Below are positions 2,951 through 9,493 of a DNA stretch of 30,859 nucleotides, in pieces. The stretch lies in IMG/VR virus record IMGVR_UViG_2740892488_000014, one strand, 5' to 3'. The position numbers and the translations under genes were made by a program. Source of the DNA: a virus (lineage: Duplodnaviria; Heunggongvirae; Uroviricota; Caudoviricetes). The notes under the pieces were generated by a model, which was not told where the DNA came from, made no database searches, and saw only the letters and a program-made list of their open reading frames with translations. Position 1 is the first letter of the stretch; every line of letters starts with the position of its first letter.

Positions 2951-3557
2951 TTACTTGCGTTTAAAAAGGTATTTTGTCACGACCAGCACGAGGCCGAATA
3001 CCTCTGTCAAAGTACCGCCCATGTACAACTGTAGTGTTAAATCCTCAAATTCCAGCTTACCTGCGCCGTCGGCAATAAATACACCATTCATTATCAGAAG
3101 TTGGAAAGCAAGGATAATCAGGAACCATTTCCCGTATCGTTTTTTTAGAGCGATTTCTGCTTCAAAATCTTTGTTGTTGAGTTGTTTGCGCTCATGCTCG
3201 GTATCAAGTGAATTCACCTGTTTCACAGATGTGAACTCGGTCAAGATTTTACTCTCAGTACGGGTGACTTGTTGAGAGGGTGTAGCAGTTGGAATTCTTT
3301 TGCTAGACGCAGCTACAGCCATTTTGCGAGCTTCGGCAGCTCTTTTTCTGGCTATTCCGCGAATACGGACAGCCGTTTTTTTTGGGGGCGTGCGAAACCT
3401 TTGGCTGAGGTGAAGCTTCGTCAGGAGACTGAACCGGAGTTTCATCGTCCTCCGGCTCAACCTCTTCTGCTAACTGACGGTGTAGGTTGAGGGAATCCTT
3501 CAGTCTGCGTGCTACTTCCTGTTTGAAACGGCTGTTAAAATCGTCATCCGATGGCAT
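2951..3557 (-). CDS. Hypothetical ~201-aa protein: charged/disordered N-terminal half and a C-terminal two-TM domain; frameshifted as sequenced
   Basis: Track ORFs 3303-3557 and 2951-3460 overlap. They join (..SHAPKK|TAVRIRGIARK..) if one base is removed from the T8 run at 3376-3383. The C-terminus has two hydrophobic helices, WFLIILAFQLLIMNGVFIA and GGTLTEVFGLVLVVTKYLF. The gene starts 9 nt after the ImmA-like stop. Confidence 0.6.
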
Positions 3558-3566
3558 TTTAAAGCG

Positions 3567-4056
3567 TTACCCCAACCTCAAGTTCTTTAAACGATAAGTC
3601 ATCGCATCGTCAGATACGCCAAAATAATGCGCCATTATATAACTTGGTTGACCGTCAGCGTGCAGTTTTCTGACCTCATCTACCGGCATCAGAAGTTCTG
3701 CTGCGAACTTGTTTGCAAAAATTTCATCAGGATGCGTTCCGGCGCTTGCGGTTTCGCCACGTAAATCAACGTACTCATATTCATCGCTATGCGATGCTTG
3801 CCGGGCGATGTAATGCCCCAACTCATGCCCACATGAAAAAACGTTGACGAACTTTGTTGTCATCACTGTTTAGAAAGATCGCTGGATCTTGATCTTTTTG
3901 TTTAATCAGTGCGCCAGAAACTTTCCCAGGAAGATCGGTAATAAAAACATCTAATCCCATGTCGTGAGCAATTTTCGCTGGATCAACAGGGAAACCACGC
4001 CCGCACCAGAACGTGTCCAGCACTCGCCGGGCGTGCTCTCTTGGGTTGGTAGCCAT
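3567..4056 (-). CDS. ImmA/IrrE-family (COG2856, DUF955) zinc metallopeptidase; frameshifted as sequenced
   Basis: Strong GGAGGAG Shine-Dalgarno. The HExxH motif in ...RQRF|SCGHELGHYIARQ... and the downstream FANKFAAELLMP are typical of the family. Track ORFs 3823-4056 and 3567-3866 join when one base is removed from the A6 run at 3836-3841. Confidence 0.8.
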
Positions 4057-4128
4057 AGCTCCTCCAGTTACTGCATTACGATTATTGGTTGAAATATAGA
4101 CAGCATGTTCCGTACCACATTCCTGTAA

Positions 4129-4147
4129 AAGTGCAAATTCTGCACTT
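4129..4147. promoter_or_regulatory. Palindromic operator candidate AAGTGCA-aattc-TGCACTT upstream of the ImmA-like operon
   Basis: A 7-bp inverted repeat sits 70-90 nt upstream of the minus-strand ATG at 4056. It is nested in the outer GTACCA...TGGTAC repeat (4112-4154). It shares GTGCAAAT with 4897-4911. Confidence 0.4.
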
Positions 4148-4432
4148 CTGGTACGATATTAACTGTTAGTAGTAAAGTCTTCCAGATAAATCACTTTAAA
4201 ATCTTGTGAATTGCTTGCTTTTTACGCTGTATTGTGGATGGTTCAATGTTTCCAGTAAAAACATACATGATAATCATGAGTTTAGTGTTTTTTTAGGCGT
4301 CTATATGTTTCTGGAAAATACAGGTCTAACCTGATCTTATCGTTGAGATTTTTTGTACTCAGTATGCGTGAACGATTCGACCAGGTGACTGTGTACGTGA
4401 AGAAGACCGCCCTTAATATTTTAAATGTGCAA

Positions 4433-4448
4433 CCCCTCAGAAGAGGGG
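4433..4448 (-). terminator. Intrinsic terminator candidate after the 77-aa gene
   Basis: CCCCTC-agaa-GAGGGG hairpin 7 nt beyond the stop at 4455. On the minus strand it is followed by TTGCACATTTAAAATATT. Confidence 0.6.
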
Positions 4449-4454
4449 CTACTC

Positions 4455-4688
4455 TCACTTCTGCAGTATCTCGCCAATACCTGCCAGATTCTCGTCCATC
4501 TTGTCACCGTTTTCGATAAGGATGGAGTTGAGCCGATTCAGTTGCATAGCAATTTCAAGTTTGATTAAGGTATCCACCGATACACCAGTTTCTTTTGCTA
4601 ACTTAGTAAGAGCCGCAGCTCGATTGGCTAAATTAAAATCATCGAACTCATAACGACTTCTGCACGGCTGGTTGCCTAACGTACCCAT
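4455..4688 (-). CDS. Hypothetical 77-aa protein with a helix-turn-helix-like segment (possible small DNA-binding regulator)
   Basis: GAGGAA Shine-Dalgarno 7 nt before the ATG. The segment AAALTKLAKETGVSVDTLIKLE looks like an Xre/Cro-type HTH. The ORF is intact and has its own terminator. Confidence 0.6.
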   Translation of the reverse strand: MGTLGNQPCRSRYEFDDFNLANRAAALTKLAKETGVSVDTLIKLEIAMQLNRLNSILIENGDKMDENLAGIGEILQK

Positions 4689-4884
4689 AGTGATTCCTCA
4701 TGATATAAAGACCCAACAATATAAATTACCAGGCACATCATAAGATAGGGTTCCAGCCCATATTTTCAAATATTTGCAAGTATCACCGTTCAGTCTAAAA
4801 AGTTGGATGATGATTTAACGAGCCATAACAAAACCCTGCCTCGGAGGTTTTTTTCTTTTTTATAGAACTCAGCGGCGTGAAAAC

Positions 4885-4923
4885 GAATAATAAATTGTGC
4901 AAATAGTGCAGTTTTTATTATTC
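4885..4923. promoter_or_regulatory. 10-bp perfect inverted repeat (GAATAATAAA / TTTATTATTC) around a GTGCAAATAGTGCAG core, just upstream of the 213-aa gene
   Basis: Read directly from the sequence. It ends 9 nt before the ATG at 4933 and overlaps the region just 5' of the GAGG Shine-Dalgarno. The core resembles GTGCAAATTCTGCAC at 4131-4145. Confidence 0.4.
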
Positions 4924-4932
4924 GAGGTAATT

Positions 4933-5574
4933 ATGAAAACCTTCTATGAGGACTGGCCTGAAACTTTCGTTAGCCGGTTAGATATGTTACGGGCGTTGGA
5001 TGATCGCGGTTCGACCCGGAGGCTCTATCTTGAACGGACCGGGGCAATATTTGACGCTCTGGCAGAAGAGATACGTACAGTCGTTGCCGGGCATCCTGAA
5101 ATCGACGTGAGTGAACTTGATATCGGGCCGCTGTATCGCTATTACAAACGTGGAGAAAAGGGGAATCCGCTGGCTGACTTACTTATTGAGTTGGCTCCAC
5201 CAACTTGTGAACGGGTTCGTATATCTCCTGAAGTGTACATAATCCCGTATCTGTTTTTTGCACTGTTGATAGCGCAAGGCGCTGACAACGATGCCCGCGA
5301 TTTTTTCAATATGATGATGCGACCGTTAATCATCGCCTACCGTTTCAAACAACTGGCGCGATACCTGGGAACAAAGGGCGGAGGACGACCACAGCACAGA
5401 TTAAAAAGCGAAGCCATTGAACTGGCTGATCGTTTTTTTACTGAAAACCCGACAGCGCCATTATCGCGTGGCGTGCAATACATATCCGGTATTTTTGTGG
5501 CGAAATACTCTGACCCACCTGCAGCGTCGACGATTAGAAAATGGTTAATTCCAATTTACAGGAGTGATAAATAA
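4933..5574 (+). CDS. Hypothetical 213-aa protein; the C-terminal ~50 aa look like a DNA-binding HTH
   Basis: I prefer the ATG at 4933 (MKTFYEDW), which has GAGG 6 nt upstream, over the track's GTG at 4897. The C-terminus GGRPQHRLKSEAIELADRFF...PPAASTIRKWL resembles resolvase/terminase-type HTH tails. I recognise no family. Confidence 0.6.
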   Translation: MKTFYEDWPETFVSRLDMLRALDDRGSTRRLYLERTGAIFDALAEEIRTVVAGHPEIDVSELDIGPLYRYYKRGEKGNPLADLLIELAPPTCERVRISPEVYIIPYLFFALLIAQGADNDARDFFNMMMRPLIIAYRFKQLARYLGTKGGGRPQHRLKSEAIELADRFFTENPTAPLSRGVQYISGIFVAKYSDPPAASTIRKWLIPIYRSDK

Positions 5575-5580
5575 TGACCA

Positions 5581-5611
5581 TAAACGGTTTAATCCCCTAT
5601 AAAACCGTTTA
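5581..5611 (+). terminator. Stem-loop after the 213-aa gene (TAAACGGTTT / AAACCGTTTA, 10-bp stem)
   Basis: Perfect 10-bp inverted repeat starting 7 nt after the stop. It is followed by ATAAAATT, which is not a clean U-tract. Confidence 0.4.
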
Positions 5612-5673
5612 ATAAAATTCACGACGTGAATATAATTGTTCATTATTCCCTCATTGTATTTGGCGTTATGACA

Positions 5674-5722
5674 AATGCCATAAAATACTGTATAAATATG
5701 GGTCTTCCCCGATCATGGTGGG
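5674..5722. repeat. Left (transposase-distal) terminal inverted repeat of the ISL3-family unit
   Basis: AATGCCAtaaaataCTGTATAaaTATGGGTCTTCCCCgatcaTGGTGGG. It overlaps a hairpin, GTCTTCCC (5702-5709) / GGGAAGAC (5720-5727), just past the transposase stop. Confidence 0.6.
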
Positions 5723-5727
5723 AAGAC

Positions 5728-6948
5728 TCAGTACGCCATATTCAGTTTCCCATAGTGGAACATAACTCCCAGTTTAAAGCGTTCCCGGTTTCGGTATCCC
5801 CTGGCCTTTATCCTCAGCAGTCTGATCTTGCTGTTCAGCGCCTCCGCATTTCCATTCGAGACGCGATGACGCATTGCATTCAGTATTCCGTATAACCGTT
5901 TTTTAATGGTTTTCGCTGCGTTTTTCATCATCGGCACATCACATTCAGACGCCAGCGATATCCACTGCAACCAGTCATTCCTGCGTTCTGTGCTCCAGGG
6001 GCGATCCCAGATATTTTTTGCCAGCTCTTTCAGTGTCCAGCACTGGCTTGTCTGTTGCATCTGTTCCCGCAACCACATCAGCTTTTCCTGCCGGGACTCA
6101 GTCATCCATTTGTCGCTGTACTGCCACAGGAAGCGGGTACCTTTGGCCTGACGACGACTTTCAACAGGGAGGTGCGGATGTTCATTCTGGCGGGTTTTAT
6201 CAACCACTTCGCCCAGTTGCTTCGCCACATGGAAGCGATCGAAGGCGATTTTCTCGACCGCATTGGGTAAATGGATACGCGCTGCTCTTATATAGCCCGC
6301 ATTCATGTCCATCGACAGTGTTTTGATGGCCAACAACTGACTGTCAGTAAGCGAACGGAGATAGCTGGCAAGACTCTCTGTGCCACGATCATCGGTTAAT
6401 GCCAGTGCCCGCCCGTCGCGATCAGATACCACGGTTATATACCTATGCCCTTTTTTAAAGGCGACTTCGTCTACATTCATATGACGCACTGATAAAGGCT
6501 TTTTAATCCGCGACAGGCCTCGCTTAACCGCGCGGGTCATGATGCCGTCAACGGCATTCCAGCTAAGTTTAAGTTGTTTTCTGACCGCATCAACGGTGCT
6601 GATTTTAAGCCATGAGAGCACGAACGATTCGAACAGCAGAGTGTACCGACTGCCGGAACCTGCCCACGGTACAGGCAGAGTCTGGCAGCCATGCTCCGGG
6701 CACATAACGCGGGGAACATCGGCTTCTACTAATGTCATGAACTGGCAGGTATCAAGGTGGCGCCATTTACGATGTCGGTGATCGTGAACAGAACAGGATT
6801 TCCTGCAGGTCGGACAGGTTAACTGAGTATTTTCAGCAATTCCGACTGTAACAGTAACGGAACCTGCATTTTCATCGAGGGTAAGGGATTTAACCTGCCA
6901 TGGTGCAGTCAGGTTAAGGATATGGGCATAGAGGGATTTTTCGTCCAT
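5728..6948 (-). CDS. ISL3-family transposase (N-terminal zinc-finger region plus DDE domain)
   Basis: Intact 406-aa ORF. CPTC...H..HR and CPEHGC zinc-binding motifs, then ...VDEVAFKKGHRYITVV...MDMNAGYI...NGNAEALNSKIRLLRIKARGYRNRERF, which is typical of ISL3 transposases. Confidence 0.9.
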   Translation of the reverse strand: MDEKSLYAHILNLTAPWQVKSLTLDENAGSVTVTVGIAENTQLTCPTCRKSCSVHDHRHRKWRHLDTCQFMTLVEADVPRVMCPEHGCQTLPVPWAGSGSRYTLLFESFVLSWLKISTVDAVRKQLKLSWNAVDGIMTRAVKRGLSRIKKPLSVRHMNVDEVAFKKGHRYITVVSDRDGRALALTDDRGTESLASYLRSLTDSQLLAIKTLSMDMNAGYIRAARIHLPNAVEKIAFDRFHVAKQLGEVVDKTRQNEHPHLPVESRRQAKGTRFLWQYSDKWMTESRQEKLMWLREQMQQTSQCWTLKELAKNIWDRPWSTERRNDWLQWISLASECDVPMMKNAAKTIKKRLYGILNAMRHRVSNGNAEALNSKIRLLRIKARGYRNRERFKLGVMFHYGKLNMAY

Positions 6949-6966
6949 ATAATTTCATTCTGAAGC

Positions 6967-7485
6967 TTACTTTAAACTGATATTATTATTTTTTGCCCAC
7001 TTTCTTAATCTTCCATTAGCGTTGGCGTAAGGCGAAGATGTGTTAAATGAGATCATTCTCCCCATCGTCCATTTTGTGTACCATGGTCTTCCATACAAAA
7101 TATCATCGGTACGATCATTAATAAGGTTCACAATCTCATTTTTTACAGTCTGAAGTTCAGCTACTAACAACTCATAACTTAACTCACTGTAATCTGAGTA
7201 AAATTTTTGAGCAAGAAGGCCAAGCTGATTCCATTTATAGCCAGTTTCCGGAAAATCGACAGGCAGACCTTTAGCATCAGAAGCGATCCACTTTACAACA
7301 AGAGCATTCCATCCAAGCAGATACGAAACGAGATCACGAACACTCATCTCCGTTCCTTTGGCGTGTCCGTCCATTGATTTATCTGAAGTAATTTCTGGTG
7401 GGATTGTGTTGAGGTAACTAATTAATTTACTAAAATTTTTATCAATAGCTAAAAGCAGTTCAGCTTTTGTTTGCGGCACACTCAT
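6967..7485 (-). CDS. ClbS/DfsB-family four-helix-bundle protein (DUF1706; colibactin self-protection homologue)
   Basis: 172 aa, GAGGG Shine-Dalgarno. From memory it aligns end to end with pks-island ClbS. Shared blocks are GHAKGT, LVSYLxGW (Tyr at position 55), FPExGxKWNxLGxLAQKFYxDY and LYGxPWYxKWTxGRMIxFNTxSPYxNAxGRL. Confidence 0.85.
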   Translation of the reverse strand: MSVPQTKAELLLAIDKNFSKLISYLNTIPPEITSDKSMDGHAKGTEMSVRDLVSYLLGWNALVVKWIASDAKGLPVDFPETGYKWNQLGLLAQKFYSDYSELSYELLVAELQTVKNEIVNLINDRTDDILYGRPWYTKWTMGRMISFNTSSPYANANGRLRKWAKNNNISLK

Positions 7486-7513
7486 AAGAATTCCCTCTCA
7501 TGTAAAAAGAGAC

Positions 7514-7541
7514 ACCATAAAGGTACTGTGTGGTGTTTGAA
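7514..7541 (-). promoter_or_regulatory. Candidate sigma70 promoter for the clbS-like/transposase transcript, just inside the right IR
   Basis: On the minus strand, TTCAAA (7541-7536), a 16-nt spacer and TATGGT (7519-7514), about 30 nt upstream of the ATG at 7485. Confidence 0.3.
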
Positions 7542-7561
7542 AATCGCTCAATTATGTACCA

Positions 7562-7607
7562 CCCACCACAACAGGGGAAGACCCATAAATATACAGGTTG
7601 TGGCATT
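7562..7607. repeat. Right terminal inverted repeat of the ISL3-family unit
   Basis: The reverse complement reads AATGCCAcaacCTGTATAttTATGGGTCTTCCCCtgttgTGGTGGG, which matches 5674-5722. Confidence 0.6.
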
Positions 7608-7618
7608 GGGGGGAAGAC

Positions 7619-7798
7619 ATGAATATTCAAGAATCTATAGGCGAACTACCGGAAACATGCCGGGCTGTTATCAAGCGTAAGGACGGACACATCGTTGGTG
7701 TGCGTGTTCTGACCGATGATGAGCGGATTGCCAGCCTGATGGCGTTTCTCGAGTTGGCAGAAATAGCTGGATATACTATTACACCCCCTGACGCGTAA
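7619..7798 (+). CDS. Small hypothetical nin-region protein (59 aa)
   Basis: I prefer the ATG at 7619 (MNIQESIG) with the GGGGGGAAG Shine-Dalgarno. The track start at 7598 would lie inside the IS inverted repeat. Confidence 0.5.
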   Translation: MNIQESIGELPETCRAVIKRKDGHIVGVRVLTDDERIASLMAFLELAEIAGYTITPPDA

Positions 7799-7875
7799 AA
7801 CACGGTATAATATCGGTGCTGGATTGAACACCCGGCATCATTTTCTGAACACTGCCGCGCCACCTGGAGTTAACC

Positions 7876-8472
7876 ATGGCGCAGCATTCATTTATCAGGG
7901 TATCCGGCGGTTCGCTAATACCCGCGACACCAGACACGCAACGCTGGTTGACTGAACGAGTCAAACCAGGTGCTGTTGTGTATGCAGATTTCAAACAGGC
8001 GCGTAATCCCGCGTTTCATCGTAAATTTTTCTCACTTCTCAACCTGGGCTTTGATTACTGGCATCCGTCCGGAGGGGCTATTTCTCCTGCGGAGCGCGAA
8101 CTGGTTCACGGCTACGTTAAGTTACTGGCGTATTACGGTGGACACGGTGATGTCATGGCAGAGCTGGCTGATCAGTATCTTCTCGATGAGTCGGAAAAGC
8201 GCGCGGGGAGTATCAGTGCGGTGAAGTCGTTCGAGGCGTTTCGCGCATGGGCGATTATGGAAGCTGGGTTTTATGACGTTCATCAGATGCCAGACGGCAG
8301 TTTGATGCGCGTACCTCGTTCAATCTCGTTTGCAGCGATGGACGATCTTGAGTTCGGTCAACTGTATTCAGCCGTTTTAGATGTGCTGTGGAATTATATT
8401 TTGTTCCGCACATTTGCCTCTCAGGAGGCCGCTGAAAATGCCGCCGCGCAGCTGCTGGATTACACATCATGA
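7876..8472 (+). CDS. Lambdoid nin-region protein, DUF1367-like (198 aa)
   Basis: GGAG Shine-Dalgarno. The size and position (immediately upstream of ybcO-like and Q) and my recollection of the roughly 200-aa DUF1367 phage family support the call. The 4-nt overlap with the next gene suggests translational coupling. Confidence 0.6.
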   Translation: MAQHSFIRVSGGSLIPATPDTQRWLTERVKPGAVVYADFKQARNPAFHRKFFSLLNLGFDYWHPSGGAISPAERELVHGYVKLLAYYGGHGDVMAELADQYLLDESEKRAGSISAVKSFEAFRAWAIMEAGFYDVHQMPDGSLMRVPRSISFAAMDDLEFGQLYSAVLDVLWNYILFRTFASQEAAENAAAQLLDYTS

Positions 8473-8762
8473 AAAAAATCGACCTGAGAAAAGCTGCACG
8501 CAGTCGCGCTTGTACTGTGCGTATCCCCGGTGTGTGCAATCACAATCCTGAAACCAGCGTACTGGCTCATTATCGTCTCGCCGGAACGTGCGGCACAGCC
8601 ATCAAACCTCACGATATGCAGGGCGCTATCGCCTGCAGTGCGTGTCACGATGCCATCGACGGACGTACAAAAACGGATTACGAGCACGACTCATTGTTGT
8701 TGATGCACGCTGAGGGAGTTTTCAGAACACTGGCTATCTGGCGCGATGAGGAGTTTATCTGA
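8469..8762 (+). CDS. ybcO: YbcO-like nin-region putative nuclease (DUF1364)
   Basis: 97 aa. LRKAARSRACTVRIPGVCNHNPETSVLAHYRL...ACSACHDAIDGRT closely parallels DLP12 YbcO as I remember it (LRKAARGRECQVRIPGVCNGNPETSVLAH...ACSACHDEID). Confidence 0.8.
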   Translation: MKKIDLRKAARSRACTVRIPGVCNHNPETSVLAHYRLAGTCGTAIKPHDMQGAIACSACHDAIDGRTKTDYEHDSLLLMHAEGVFRTLAIWRDEEFI

Positions 8763-9433
8763 TGAGTAACGAGTATTTATTGGAATATACCCGCATAAAA
8801 CTGCGCGCTGCATTGCGGGATTTGTCTGGTGGTTCTAAGGGGCAACTGGAAGCATTGTGTGAGCACCCACCGGCAGACAAAAACGCATACCCACGCAAAC
8901 ATATTCACCGTGTGCAGCTGGAGGACCGGACCGTTGATGCTCTGGTTACGCCAGTTTACGCTCTGGAAAGTTTCAGCAGACGTCGCCCCGCGCCGCCGAT
9001 GAGTGATTTTGAATTTGCTGATTCATCCTGGCGGCGTTCTGTGAACTCGCTGGATGCAAGTCAGCAAGCGTGGTTGCGTTATTGCTACGGTGGTAACCTG
9101 GCATTCAAACACCAAACAGCTATTTGTGAGGCTGTCTGGAGTCGCTATAAAGGAAACATCCCCGCGTCAACTCAGAGAAAAGTAGTTAAGCGCCTGCTTT
9201 CGTTGGTGTGGTTGTCCGTGCAGGCGGTCGCAGCAGCAAATAAACGCGAGGATTTTAAGGAGATGGCCGGATCTACCCTAGCAGGAATGCTGTCGGTTTC
9301 TCGTTCCACCTGGTGCGAAACATACTCCCTGCACTGGGTAGGAATGAAAGAGGCGGTGAGAGCACTTGATGAAGTGGCACTTCTTGCAACTTTGCATCAT
9401 TATCAGAACCATTTAGACGACGTTTGCGTATAA
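8762..9433 (+). CDS. Late-gene antitermination protein Q (about 25-kDa Q family)
   Basis: 223 aa, the last gene before the late promoter and lysis cassette. It has the AWLRYCYG motif that I associate with the Pfam Phage_antitermQ family. Its ATG overlaps the ybcO-like stop (ATGA). Confidence 0.75.
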   Translation: MSNEYLLEYTRIKLRAALRDLSGGSKGQLEALCEHPPADKNAYPRKHIHRVQLEDRTVDALVTPVYALESFSRRRPAPPMSDFEFADSSWRRSVNSLDASQQAWLRYCYGGNLAFKHQTAICEAVWSRYKGNIPASTQRKVVKRLLSLVWLSVQAVAAANKREDFKEMAGSTLAGMLSVSRSTWCETYSLHWVGMKEAVRALDEVALLATLHHYQNHLDDVCV

Positions 9434-9436
9434 TGC

Positions 9437-9493
9437 TTGCAAAAACGAACAAAATAGGCCATATTTGACGCTAATTTGGTATGTTGCCAAATT
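9437..9493 (+). promoter_or_regulatory. Late promoter (PR'-like) candidates
   Basis: There are two overlapping sigma70-like arrangements. One is TTGCAA (9437-9442), 17 nt, CATATT (9460-9465). The other is TTGACG (9465-9470), 17 nt, CAAATT (9488-9493). A -10-like TATGTT at 9479-9484 could act as a pause element for the first. Confidence 0.35.

Follow-up and report, generated by a model that had tools for sequence, protein, structure and literature searches.

Where does the transposon carried by an Escherichia coli prophage begin and end, and what kind of site did it enter? The question is raised by a 30,859-nt stretch of DNA (the window) from a Caudoviricetes virus, IMG/VR record IMGVR_UViG_2740892488_000014, in which inverted repeats enclose an ISL3-family transposase gene and a ClbS-like gene of the DUF1706 family. 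An initial annotation, made from this DNA alone, described a 1.93-kb transposon at 5674-7607 with repeats of 46-49 bp and no target-site duplication. Comparison with other genomes gives a different answer. Judged by sequence identity, the element at 5700-7584 is ISEc53, an insertion sequence (IS) of the ISL3 family, 1885 bp long and carrying ClbS-like cargo, and ISEc53 and its relatives appear to use LexA (SOS) operators almost exclusively as insertion sites. It is very probable that both parts of this reading hold together, namely that the window contains an ISEc53 copy in a LexA operator and that targeting of CTGT-N8-ACAG extends across the clade.

The ends of the element were defined by its other copies. 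A megablast search with positions 5600-7700 against 5,426 complete E. coli genomes gave a whole-query match in 13 genomes, and hundreds more chromosomes and plasmids matched the inner part only. Comparison of six other E. coli contexts showed a common unit of exactly 1885 bp, extending from GGGTCTTCCCC to GGGGAAGACCC and corresponding to 5700-7584 of the window. In seven independent E. coli copies the sequences outside this unit are unrelated beyond the bases of a LexA box, and each copy has its own 8-bp direct repeat. Copies at least 99% identical, located on chromosomes, plasmids and prophages, all represent one 1885-bp two-gene unit, which bears out the proposal of an ISL3-family element whose repeats enclose a co-oriented ClbS/DUF1706 passenger upstream of the transposase gene.

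The terminal inverted repeats of the element itself are 23 bp long and imperfect, with 19 of 23 positions identical, and start with GGGTCTTCCCC. Members of the ISL3 family are defined by inverted repeats of about 15-40 bp starting with GG(C/G)TCTT and by an 8-bp target duplication; the 23-bp repeats, together with an 8-bp duplication in 57 distinct copies, agree with this definition. The longer repeat that had been described is present with all of its blocks, and a repeat search in 5000-8500 found the longest inverted pair at 5688-5722 / 7562-7596 (35 nt, 83% complementary). However, this repeat is a composite, of which only the inner 23 nt (5700-5722 / 7562-7584) are derived from the element, the rest being duplicated target and a phage palindrome. 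The outer repeat is a LexA operator split in two, which had passed unrecognised, and the target duplication reported as missing is the 8-bp ATAAATAT at 5692-5699 and 7585-7592.

These assignments could be compared with the empty site. Removal of 5700-7592, which covers the element with one ATAAATAT copy, and joining of the flanks gave a 798-nt sequence that matched in one piece and with 100% identity more than 400 E. coli genomes, including EC958 and JJ1886; the site is filled in about 13. The uninterrupted sequence reads AATGCCAtaaaaTACTGTATAAATATACAGgttgTGGCATT and has a single ATAAATAT. Since the empty site holds them, the outer blocks of the longer repeat are phage DNA and the middle blocks are target and duplication. 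The reconstructed operator, TACTGTATAAATATACAGGT, is the sole CTGT-N8-ACAG in the 30.8-kb window and has an AT-rich spacer. EC958 (L205) has the same gene order at the site and likewise lacks replication genes there, so the deletion that the initial annotation had suspected was not made by the element; the comparison with empty-site relatives that it had advised thus found an uninterrupted site and refuted the ends that it had drawn. To judge from the genomes compared, the insertion is a recent minority event in a prophage widespread in E. coli sequence type 131 (ST131).

The preference for such sites was examined in a pooled sample. It comprised viral contigs scanned for the left end, transposase relatives (one genome per species) and more E. 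coli contexts, including those of ISKox3, and was extended by scanning metagenomes with the conserved right end, by look-ups of more distant homologues and by a profile-based scan of viral contigs. In this sample, ISEc53, ISKox3 and relatives are represented by 102 distinct complete copies, which have GGGTCTTCCC(C/T)...GGGGAAGACCC ends. A perfect 8-bp duplication was found in 57 of the 102, with 37 different spacers, and in 48 of these 57 copies the duplicated N8 lies within a perfect CTGT-N8-ACAG; the eight flanking bases contain one mismatch in eight copies and two in a single copy. In all DNA pooled in the analysis, there is about one intact CTGT-N8-ACAG per 56 kb. The N8 spacers are 88% A+T. 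On the side of the transposase 3' end, ACAG occupies positions +9 to +12 in 101 of 130 unique flanks, and the position frequencies spell ATATATAT-ACAG-TA, which matches the E. coli LexA consensus. In the seven E. coli copies the duplicated 8 bp lie between CTGT and ACAG or one-mismatch variants of these, and about 30 further prophage copies show the matching pattern.

The genes next to the interrupted sites point in the same direction, the targets of the sampled sites being located in the promoter regions of SOS-regulon genes. Interrupted sites lie directly before sbmC, dinD, dinG, umuDC and a plasmid dinI-like gene that is followed by umuDC. In other genera, the genes directly past the junctions encode UmuD-like S24 peptidases, DinI, YdjM and a pore-forming colicin, and the Marinobacter neighbour is yebG; all of these are classical SOS genes. 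The interrupted sequences at dinG, dinD and sbmC are presumably the LexA boxes known for these genes, which are said to have been described by Fernandez de Henestrosa and co-workers in 2000. At the sbmC box, the element is found in either orientation (L006 versus L079-L081 and L206), and no bias of orientation relative to the SOS gene was apparent among the annotated cases (about five sense, six antisense). The dacD-sbmC intergenic region (500 nt) is split in about 290 of 5,418 genomes, all causes taken together; one of the splits checked is ISEc53 at the box, and another is due to an unrelated phage, inserted about 45 bp upstream. The LexA box at sbmC is a hot spot.

Elements whose transposases are 60-99% identical to that of ISEc53 all have this target preference. 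Among the named relatives, the one with 85% nucleotide identity is ISKox3 in RefSeq, and a Sodalis relative carries the source name ISSoEn4. ISKox3 resembles ISEc53 in its transposase gene (about 85% nucleotide identity), terminal repeats, 8-bp duplication and LexA-box target, and was found at chromosomal umuDC and in an IncX3 plasmid operon with an S24-peptidase gene. At 45-46% amino acid identity, elements of Achromobacter and Marinobacter occupy CTGG/CTGT-N8-xCAG sites (CTGG-GTCAGTTT-TCAG and CTGT-ATGGATTT-CCAG in the former, CTGG-TCAAACGT-ACAG in the latter), and in an unassigned contig, L212, the right end is followed by ATAAAAAC-ACAG. A relative with 38% amino acid identity and canonical GGCTCTTC ends (L249) has CTATACAT-ACAG at its one readable end, and L250, a relative with 41% identity that lies in GC-rich DNA, shows an 8-bp duplication at an ordinary non-LexA target, ATTA-AGAAAAGC-GGAT. 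Since the 45-46% relatives lie in LexA boxes and L250 does not, the trait belongs to a subfamily rather than to the whole ISL3 family, and the boundary of this subfamily falls somewhere near 40% identity.

Near-identical copies (87-93% amino acid identity) also occur in assemblies labelled as a Chloroflexota metagenome-assembled genome, Arthrobacter, Vagococcus and Chryseobacterium (L015, L019, L029, L060, L066). Three of them (L015, L019, L066) are on very short contigs, and the copies look like enterobacterial contamination or mis-binning rather than true host range.

In the reading preferred here, ISEc53 transposed recently, within the ST131 lineage, into the prophage LexA operator TACTGT-ATAAATAT-ACAG, which overlaps the putative promoter of a prophage operon comprising a 59-aa gene, a NinB-like gene, a DUF1364 gene and Q. 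DDE transposition makes staggered cuts 8 bp apart, exactly at the operator-spacer borders and in either orientation, so that the spacer is duplicated and one half-operator is left on each side. The same rule applies to the clade and is no peculiarity of this copy, ISEc53, ISKox3 and relatives with GGGTCTTCCC ends entering the CTGT-N8-ACAG of SOS genes in either orientation. The symmetric register suggests a transposase dimer that would read the two CTG/CAG half-sites directly; this direct readout, which is preferred over any role of LexA, stands at about an even chance. One good half-site seems to be enough, to judge from dinG and fimB. Two targets hint at direct readout, namely the fimB site GTGT-ATATATAT-CCAT, used despite being a poor LexA box, and CTGT-CCTTCGGA-ACAG (L053), used despite a GC-rich spacer.

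A less probable but still credible alternative is guidance by LexA itself, in which the transposase would be recruited to LexA-bound (bent) operators, or the site would be freed only after LexA cleavage in the SOS response. It would fit the flank consensus, which is not limited to CTGT/ACAG but extends over the full LexA motif with its alternating AT spacer and outer T-A, and also the use of well-known SOS operators, those of umuDC, sbmC and dinD, which are strong. Moreover, targeting is kept down to about 38-46% transposase identity, which a conserved protein partner would easily explain. However, neither of the two sites just named is a good-looking LexA site, searches of Pfam and NCBIfam found no transposase domain beyond the three standard ISL3 ones, and the full-motif consensus is also expected if half-sites alone are needed, most tolerated sites being natural operators. 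A wider proposal is similarly tentative: the ISL3 subfamily (ISEc53, ISKox3, ISSoEn4-like elements and further relatives, to about 40% identity, of Beta- and Gammaproteobacteria) would not only use LexA operators but be coupled to the SOS state, LexA either recruiting the transposase or leaving the operators after DNA damage and so opening them. If this were true, each insertion would rewire one SOS gene, prophage lytic genes would be disconnected from DNA damage, and ISEc53 would also deliver a gene against colibactin, a genotoxin triggering such damage.

It is very unlikely that there is no real specificity, that is, that insertion is generally into AT-rich DNA and that copies outside SOS operators are lost or overlooked. 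ISL3 elements do prefer AT-rich 8-bp targets, the A+T content of the spacers is in line with this, and purifying selection certainly acts on the copies. Selection, however, cannot set the register: CTGT/ACAG, with no more than one mismatch, surrounds 56 of the 57 duplications, whatever the orientation and across many genera, where the chance of the tetramer is 1/256 per flank. Even in a 'Ca. Symbiopectobacterium', the genome of which is decaying, CTGx or ACAG is retained in most flanks. Least probable of all is the originally drawn transposon with its long repeats and possible loss of replication genes, which has in its favour the extended inverted pair and the outer AATGCCA/TGGCATT blocks, whereas other copies share 5700-7584 only, those blocks with one ATAAATAT and CTGT/ACAG are all contained in the uninterrupted site, and EC958 and other empty-site genomes also have no replication genes there.

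Several observations weigh against targeting of LexA operators as a general rule, or limit how far it can be taken. The fimB site is degenerate, GTGT-ATATATAT-CCAT being GTGT-(AT)4-CCAT; its left duplication copy is 3 bp shorter in ST131, and a full ATATATAT left flank is present in two metagenome contigs. In 'Ca. Symbiopectobacterium', a few copies are surrounded by sequence that bears no relation to the motif. The genome of one such symbiont, 'Ca. Symbiopectobacterium endolongispinus', contains about 30 copies of a 1315-bp member (loci L033-L051, L057, L059, L061, L062, L067 and L071), most with non-matching flanks, each side of which still has half a LexA box; this pattern suggests recombination between copies and implies that many SOS operators of this genome would have been destroyed. 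Nearly half of all complete copies have no matching duplication, which is read, tentatively, as recombination between copies. The sites are also those of survivors in sequenced genomes, so that selection against coding insertions must inflate the share of intergenic operators. All sampled hosts share one LexA motif, the relatives being from Gamma- and Betaproteobacteria or of unassigned origin, and direct readout and LexA guidance are therefore not separable here. At the phage site, the LexA operator is predicted, the transposition is deduced from sequence comparison, and the promoter assignments are pattern reading only. Finally, the novelty of the preference is limited to the open-access full-text literature, in which nothing was found to say that LexA or SOS boxes are targeted by ISEc53, ISKox3 or another ISL3 element; within this scope, LexA-operator targeting by ISL3 elements is probably new.

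The consequences of insertion follow from the junctions, which read CTGT-N8-GGGT and are no longer LexA boxes. The operator would be destroyed, and the downstream SOS gene would either be cut from its promoter or come under read-through from the element. No CTGT-N8-ACAG is present inside 5700-7584; LexA control of the element's own genes was considered and dropped, as there is no LexA box at the junctions or within the element. In the prophage, a promoter-like pair (Table 1), missed by the promoter scan because the scan demands T at position 6 of the -10 hexamer, would remain intact on the left and now be aimed into the transposase gene from its 3' end. The genes for the 59-aa, NinB-like, DUF1364 and Q proteins would then be 1.9 kb away from it, so that uncoupling of the Q/late operon from DNA damage might be expected, as far as position can indicate.

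Table 1. Coordinates of the ISEc53 copy, its insertion site and the adjoining phage features in the window.
Feature	Position	Strand	Basis
ISEc53, complete element	5700..7584	- (both genes on minus strand)	Shared unit in 6 other contexts, RefSeq name, empty site
Terminal inverted repeat, transposase-3'-end side, GGGTCTTCCCCGATCATGGTGGG	5700..5722	.	19/23 vs reverse complement of 7562-7584; conserved across clade
Terminal inverted repeat, passenger end, reverse complement GGGTCTTCCCCTGTTGTGGTGGG	7562..7584	.	Repeat comparison; clade alignment
ISL3-family DDE transposase, 406 aa	5728..6948	-	Pfam and NCBIfam
ClbS-like (DUF1706) passenger, 172 aa	6967..7485	-	Pfam DUF1706, PDB matches, GC content
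Left target-duplication copy ATAAATAT, N8 spacer of LexA box	5692..5699	.	Copy comparison, empty site
Right target-duplication copy ATAAATAT	7585..7592	.	Copy comparison, empty site
CTGT, left half of split LexA operator (host/phage DNA)	5688..5691	.	Reconstructed site
ACAG, right half of split LexA operator (host/phage DNA)	7593..7596	.	Reconstructed site
AATGCCA, outer palindrome arm, phage DNA outside element	5674..5680	.	In uninterrupted site of >400 genomes
TGGCATT, other palindrome arm, phage DNA outside element	7601..7607	.	In uninterrupted site of >400 genomes
Putative phage promoter, ATGACA-17 nt-TATAAA, -10 overlapping LexA box	5668..5696	+	Read by eye; inference only
First phage gene after operator, 59 aa, PHROG 340, function unknown	7619..7798	+	ORF list, annotation

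The gene for the 59-aa protein is followed by genes for a NinB-like/DUF1367 protein, a DUF1364 protein and the antiterminator Q. That the only LexA box of the window precedes a Q-ending operon suggests that the late genes may be under direct LexA control rather than controlled via repressor cleavage; the role of the phage site as an SOS operator is read from its position only. The box is nested in the longer palindrome AATGCCA...TGGCATT. Elsewhere, the prophage (window 3300-5600 and 7600-9450; L205) contains a gene for an ImmA/IrrE-type metallopeptidase, small divergent genes and no recognisable replication genes.

The transposase matches all three ISL3 domains of Pfam (DDE_Tnp_ISL3, 1.3e-58; HTH_Tnp_ISL3, 2.9e-12; Zn_ribbon_ISL3, 3.3e-10) and scores 328 bits against NCBIfam transpos_ISL3, for which the cut-off is 180. 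As initially annotated, its open reading frame (ORF) is separated from the DUF1706 ORF by 18 nt, both being on the minus strand, and the two genes are very probably co-transcribed. No minus-strand promoter was detected in 7486-7584 by the promoter scan, and hand inspection of the element ends found no convincing -35/-10 pair for an outward or hybrid promoter. The promoter-like pair of ISKox3 type, TTGTTG-16 nt-GATAAT, is not conserved in ISEc53, because the cassette with the passenger starts right after the repeat.

The passenger gene is more AT-rich than the transposase gene (37.6% versus 50.4% GC), which agrees with the earlier description. In the passenger-free ISKox3 (1316 bp), homology to ISEc53 ends exactly at the transposase ATG, and the two elements also diverge directly after the 23-bp repeat. 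The loss of homology at the start codon identifies the passenger as an acquired cassette; an AT-rich, ClbS-like cassette of 0.57 kb has thus replaced the short leader of a transposase-only ancestor. The encoded protein matches PF08020 (DUF1706) with E = 3e-54 over residues 1-165 of 166 and is identical to PDB 5COF, an entry named 'uncharacterized protein'; the structure of an IS-borne ClbS homologue has thus been solved. ClbS is the colibactin self-resistance cyclopropane hydrolase. The passenger aligns with it over the full length (PDB 6ANR, E = 1e-55) and belongs to the same DUF1706 four-helix-bundle family; the residue aligned to Tyr55 of ClbS, presumably the catalytic one, is also Tyr and lies within LVSYLLGW. 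Unlike ClbS, the passenger is encoded outside the pks island, on an IS. Orphan ClbS-like proteins of 25-80% identity all protected against colibactin when tested (Silpe et al. 2022, PMC8907063); the passenger was not identified among them. It would probably give protection from cyclopropane genotoxins of the colibactin type.

The cargo differs between members of the clade. One product is a GNAT acetyltransferase, which is accompanied by a 128-aa protein of unknown type; others are a member of the glyoxalase superfamily that is possibly FosA-like, a protein resembling Peptidase_M91 effectors, a protein of 293 aa without a match in Pfam and one with an SH3 domain. These relatives (L024 2102-4701; L026 2937-4697; L056 2936-4683; L028 1419-3482; L052/L068 2034-4248; L025 1-1689; L208-L210 1431-3245) have ends and LexA-box targets like those of ISEc53, and Achromobacter has a form of 1815 bp. 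Cassettes of one gene seem to be acquired by the clade on both flanks of the transposase gene.

Target-specific and cargo-bearing ISs are known from other groups, and those homing to REP palindromes offer the nearest parallel in concept. IS1397 and ISKpn1 of the IS3 family and ISPpu9, ISPpu10 and ISPa11 of the IS110 family target repetitive extragenic palindromic (REP) or palindromic unit (PU) sequences. Like these, the ISEc53 clade chooses a short palindrome with many intergenic copies per genome; it differs in using the operator of a stress regulon, an ISL3 DDE transposase and duplication of an 8-bp spacer, and in destroying a regulatory site. ISPpu12, an ISL3-family 'transporter IS' with passenger genes, likewise combines an ISL3 transposase with extra genes within its repeats, of which the cargo differs; to our knowledge, no target specificity has been reported for it. 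ISEc53 itself is not new: Totsika et al. (2011, PMC3203889) described its two-gene unit, which has 23 bp imperfect inverted repeats, as an 'ISL3-like insertion' in fimB of E. coli ST131 and Nissle 1917. As published, this insertion measured 1,895 bp with 5-bp direct repeats, and no target motif was named (PMC3203889). It is the same element, with two ORFs, 23-bp repeats and 99.5-100% identity over 1885 bp to the copies named ISEc53 in RefSeq annotation, and differs here in its length of 1885 bp, its 8-bp duplication and the recognition of its target as a LexA operator. Element, genes and repeats are thus known already, and the target preference is probably the new part.

The element is ordinary and catalogued, and it is its choice of target that matters. 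An IS family homing to SOS operators would, if confirmed, represent a new class of target-specific transposition. It would explain why ISKox3, which has no passenger, unlike ISEc53, is common next to umuD on the globally spread IncX3 plasmids with blaNDM, and why ISEc53 is found repeatedly at sbmC, dinD and dinI-umuDC, and on two occasions at one fimB position. SOS regulation would vary at individual genes between natural E. coli isolates, the dacD-sbmC region being split in up to about 5% of complete genomes. LexA boxes on plasmids, in colicin operons and in prophages would offer many landing sites on transferable DNA, and insertions in prophages should alter inducibility. For targeted insertion, a compact transposase that consists of a single protein and recognises a 16-bp palindrome could possibly be of use, and the ClbS-like cargo would provide a link to the ecology of colibactin in the gut.

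Some minor features of the element were also noted. The motif GGGAAGAC, or its complement GTCTTCCC, is found at 5702, 5720, 7575 and 7611, in accordance with the four occurrences first listed. The one at 7611 was rejected as a feature of the element; it is located in a phage ribosome-binding region and is a coincidence, since it is already present in the empty site. A hairpin, GTCTTCCC-N10-GGGAAGAC, is formed at 5702-5727 by pairing of the terminal repeat with the last transposase codons (about -19 kcal/mol on either strand). Its pairing is not kept across the clade and no T-run follows, and it was taken as a by-product of repeat and gene end rather than a functional structure. In strain KE54 (NZ_CP141079.1, 3864646-3867307), the fimB copy of ISEc53 is broken by an IS1A inside the clbS-like gene, and it therefore matches in two pieces, with ClbS/DfsB annotated twice.

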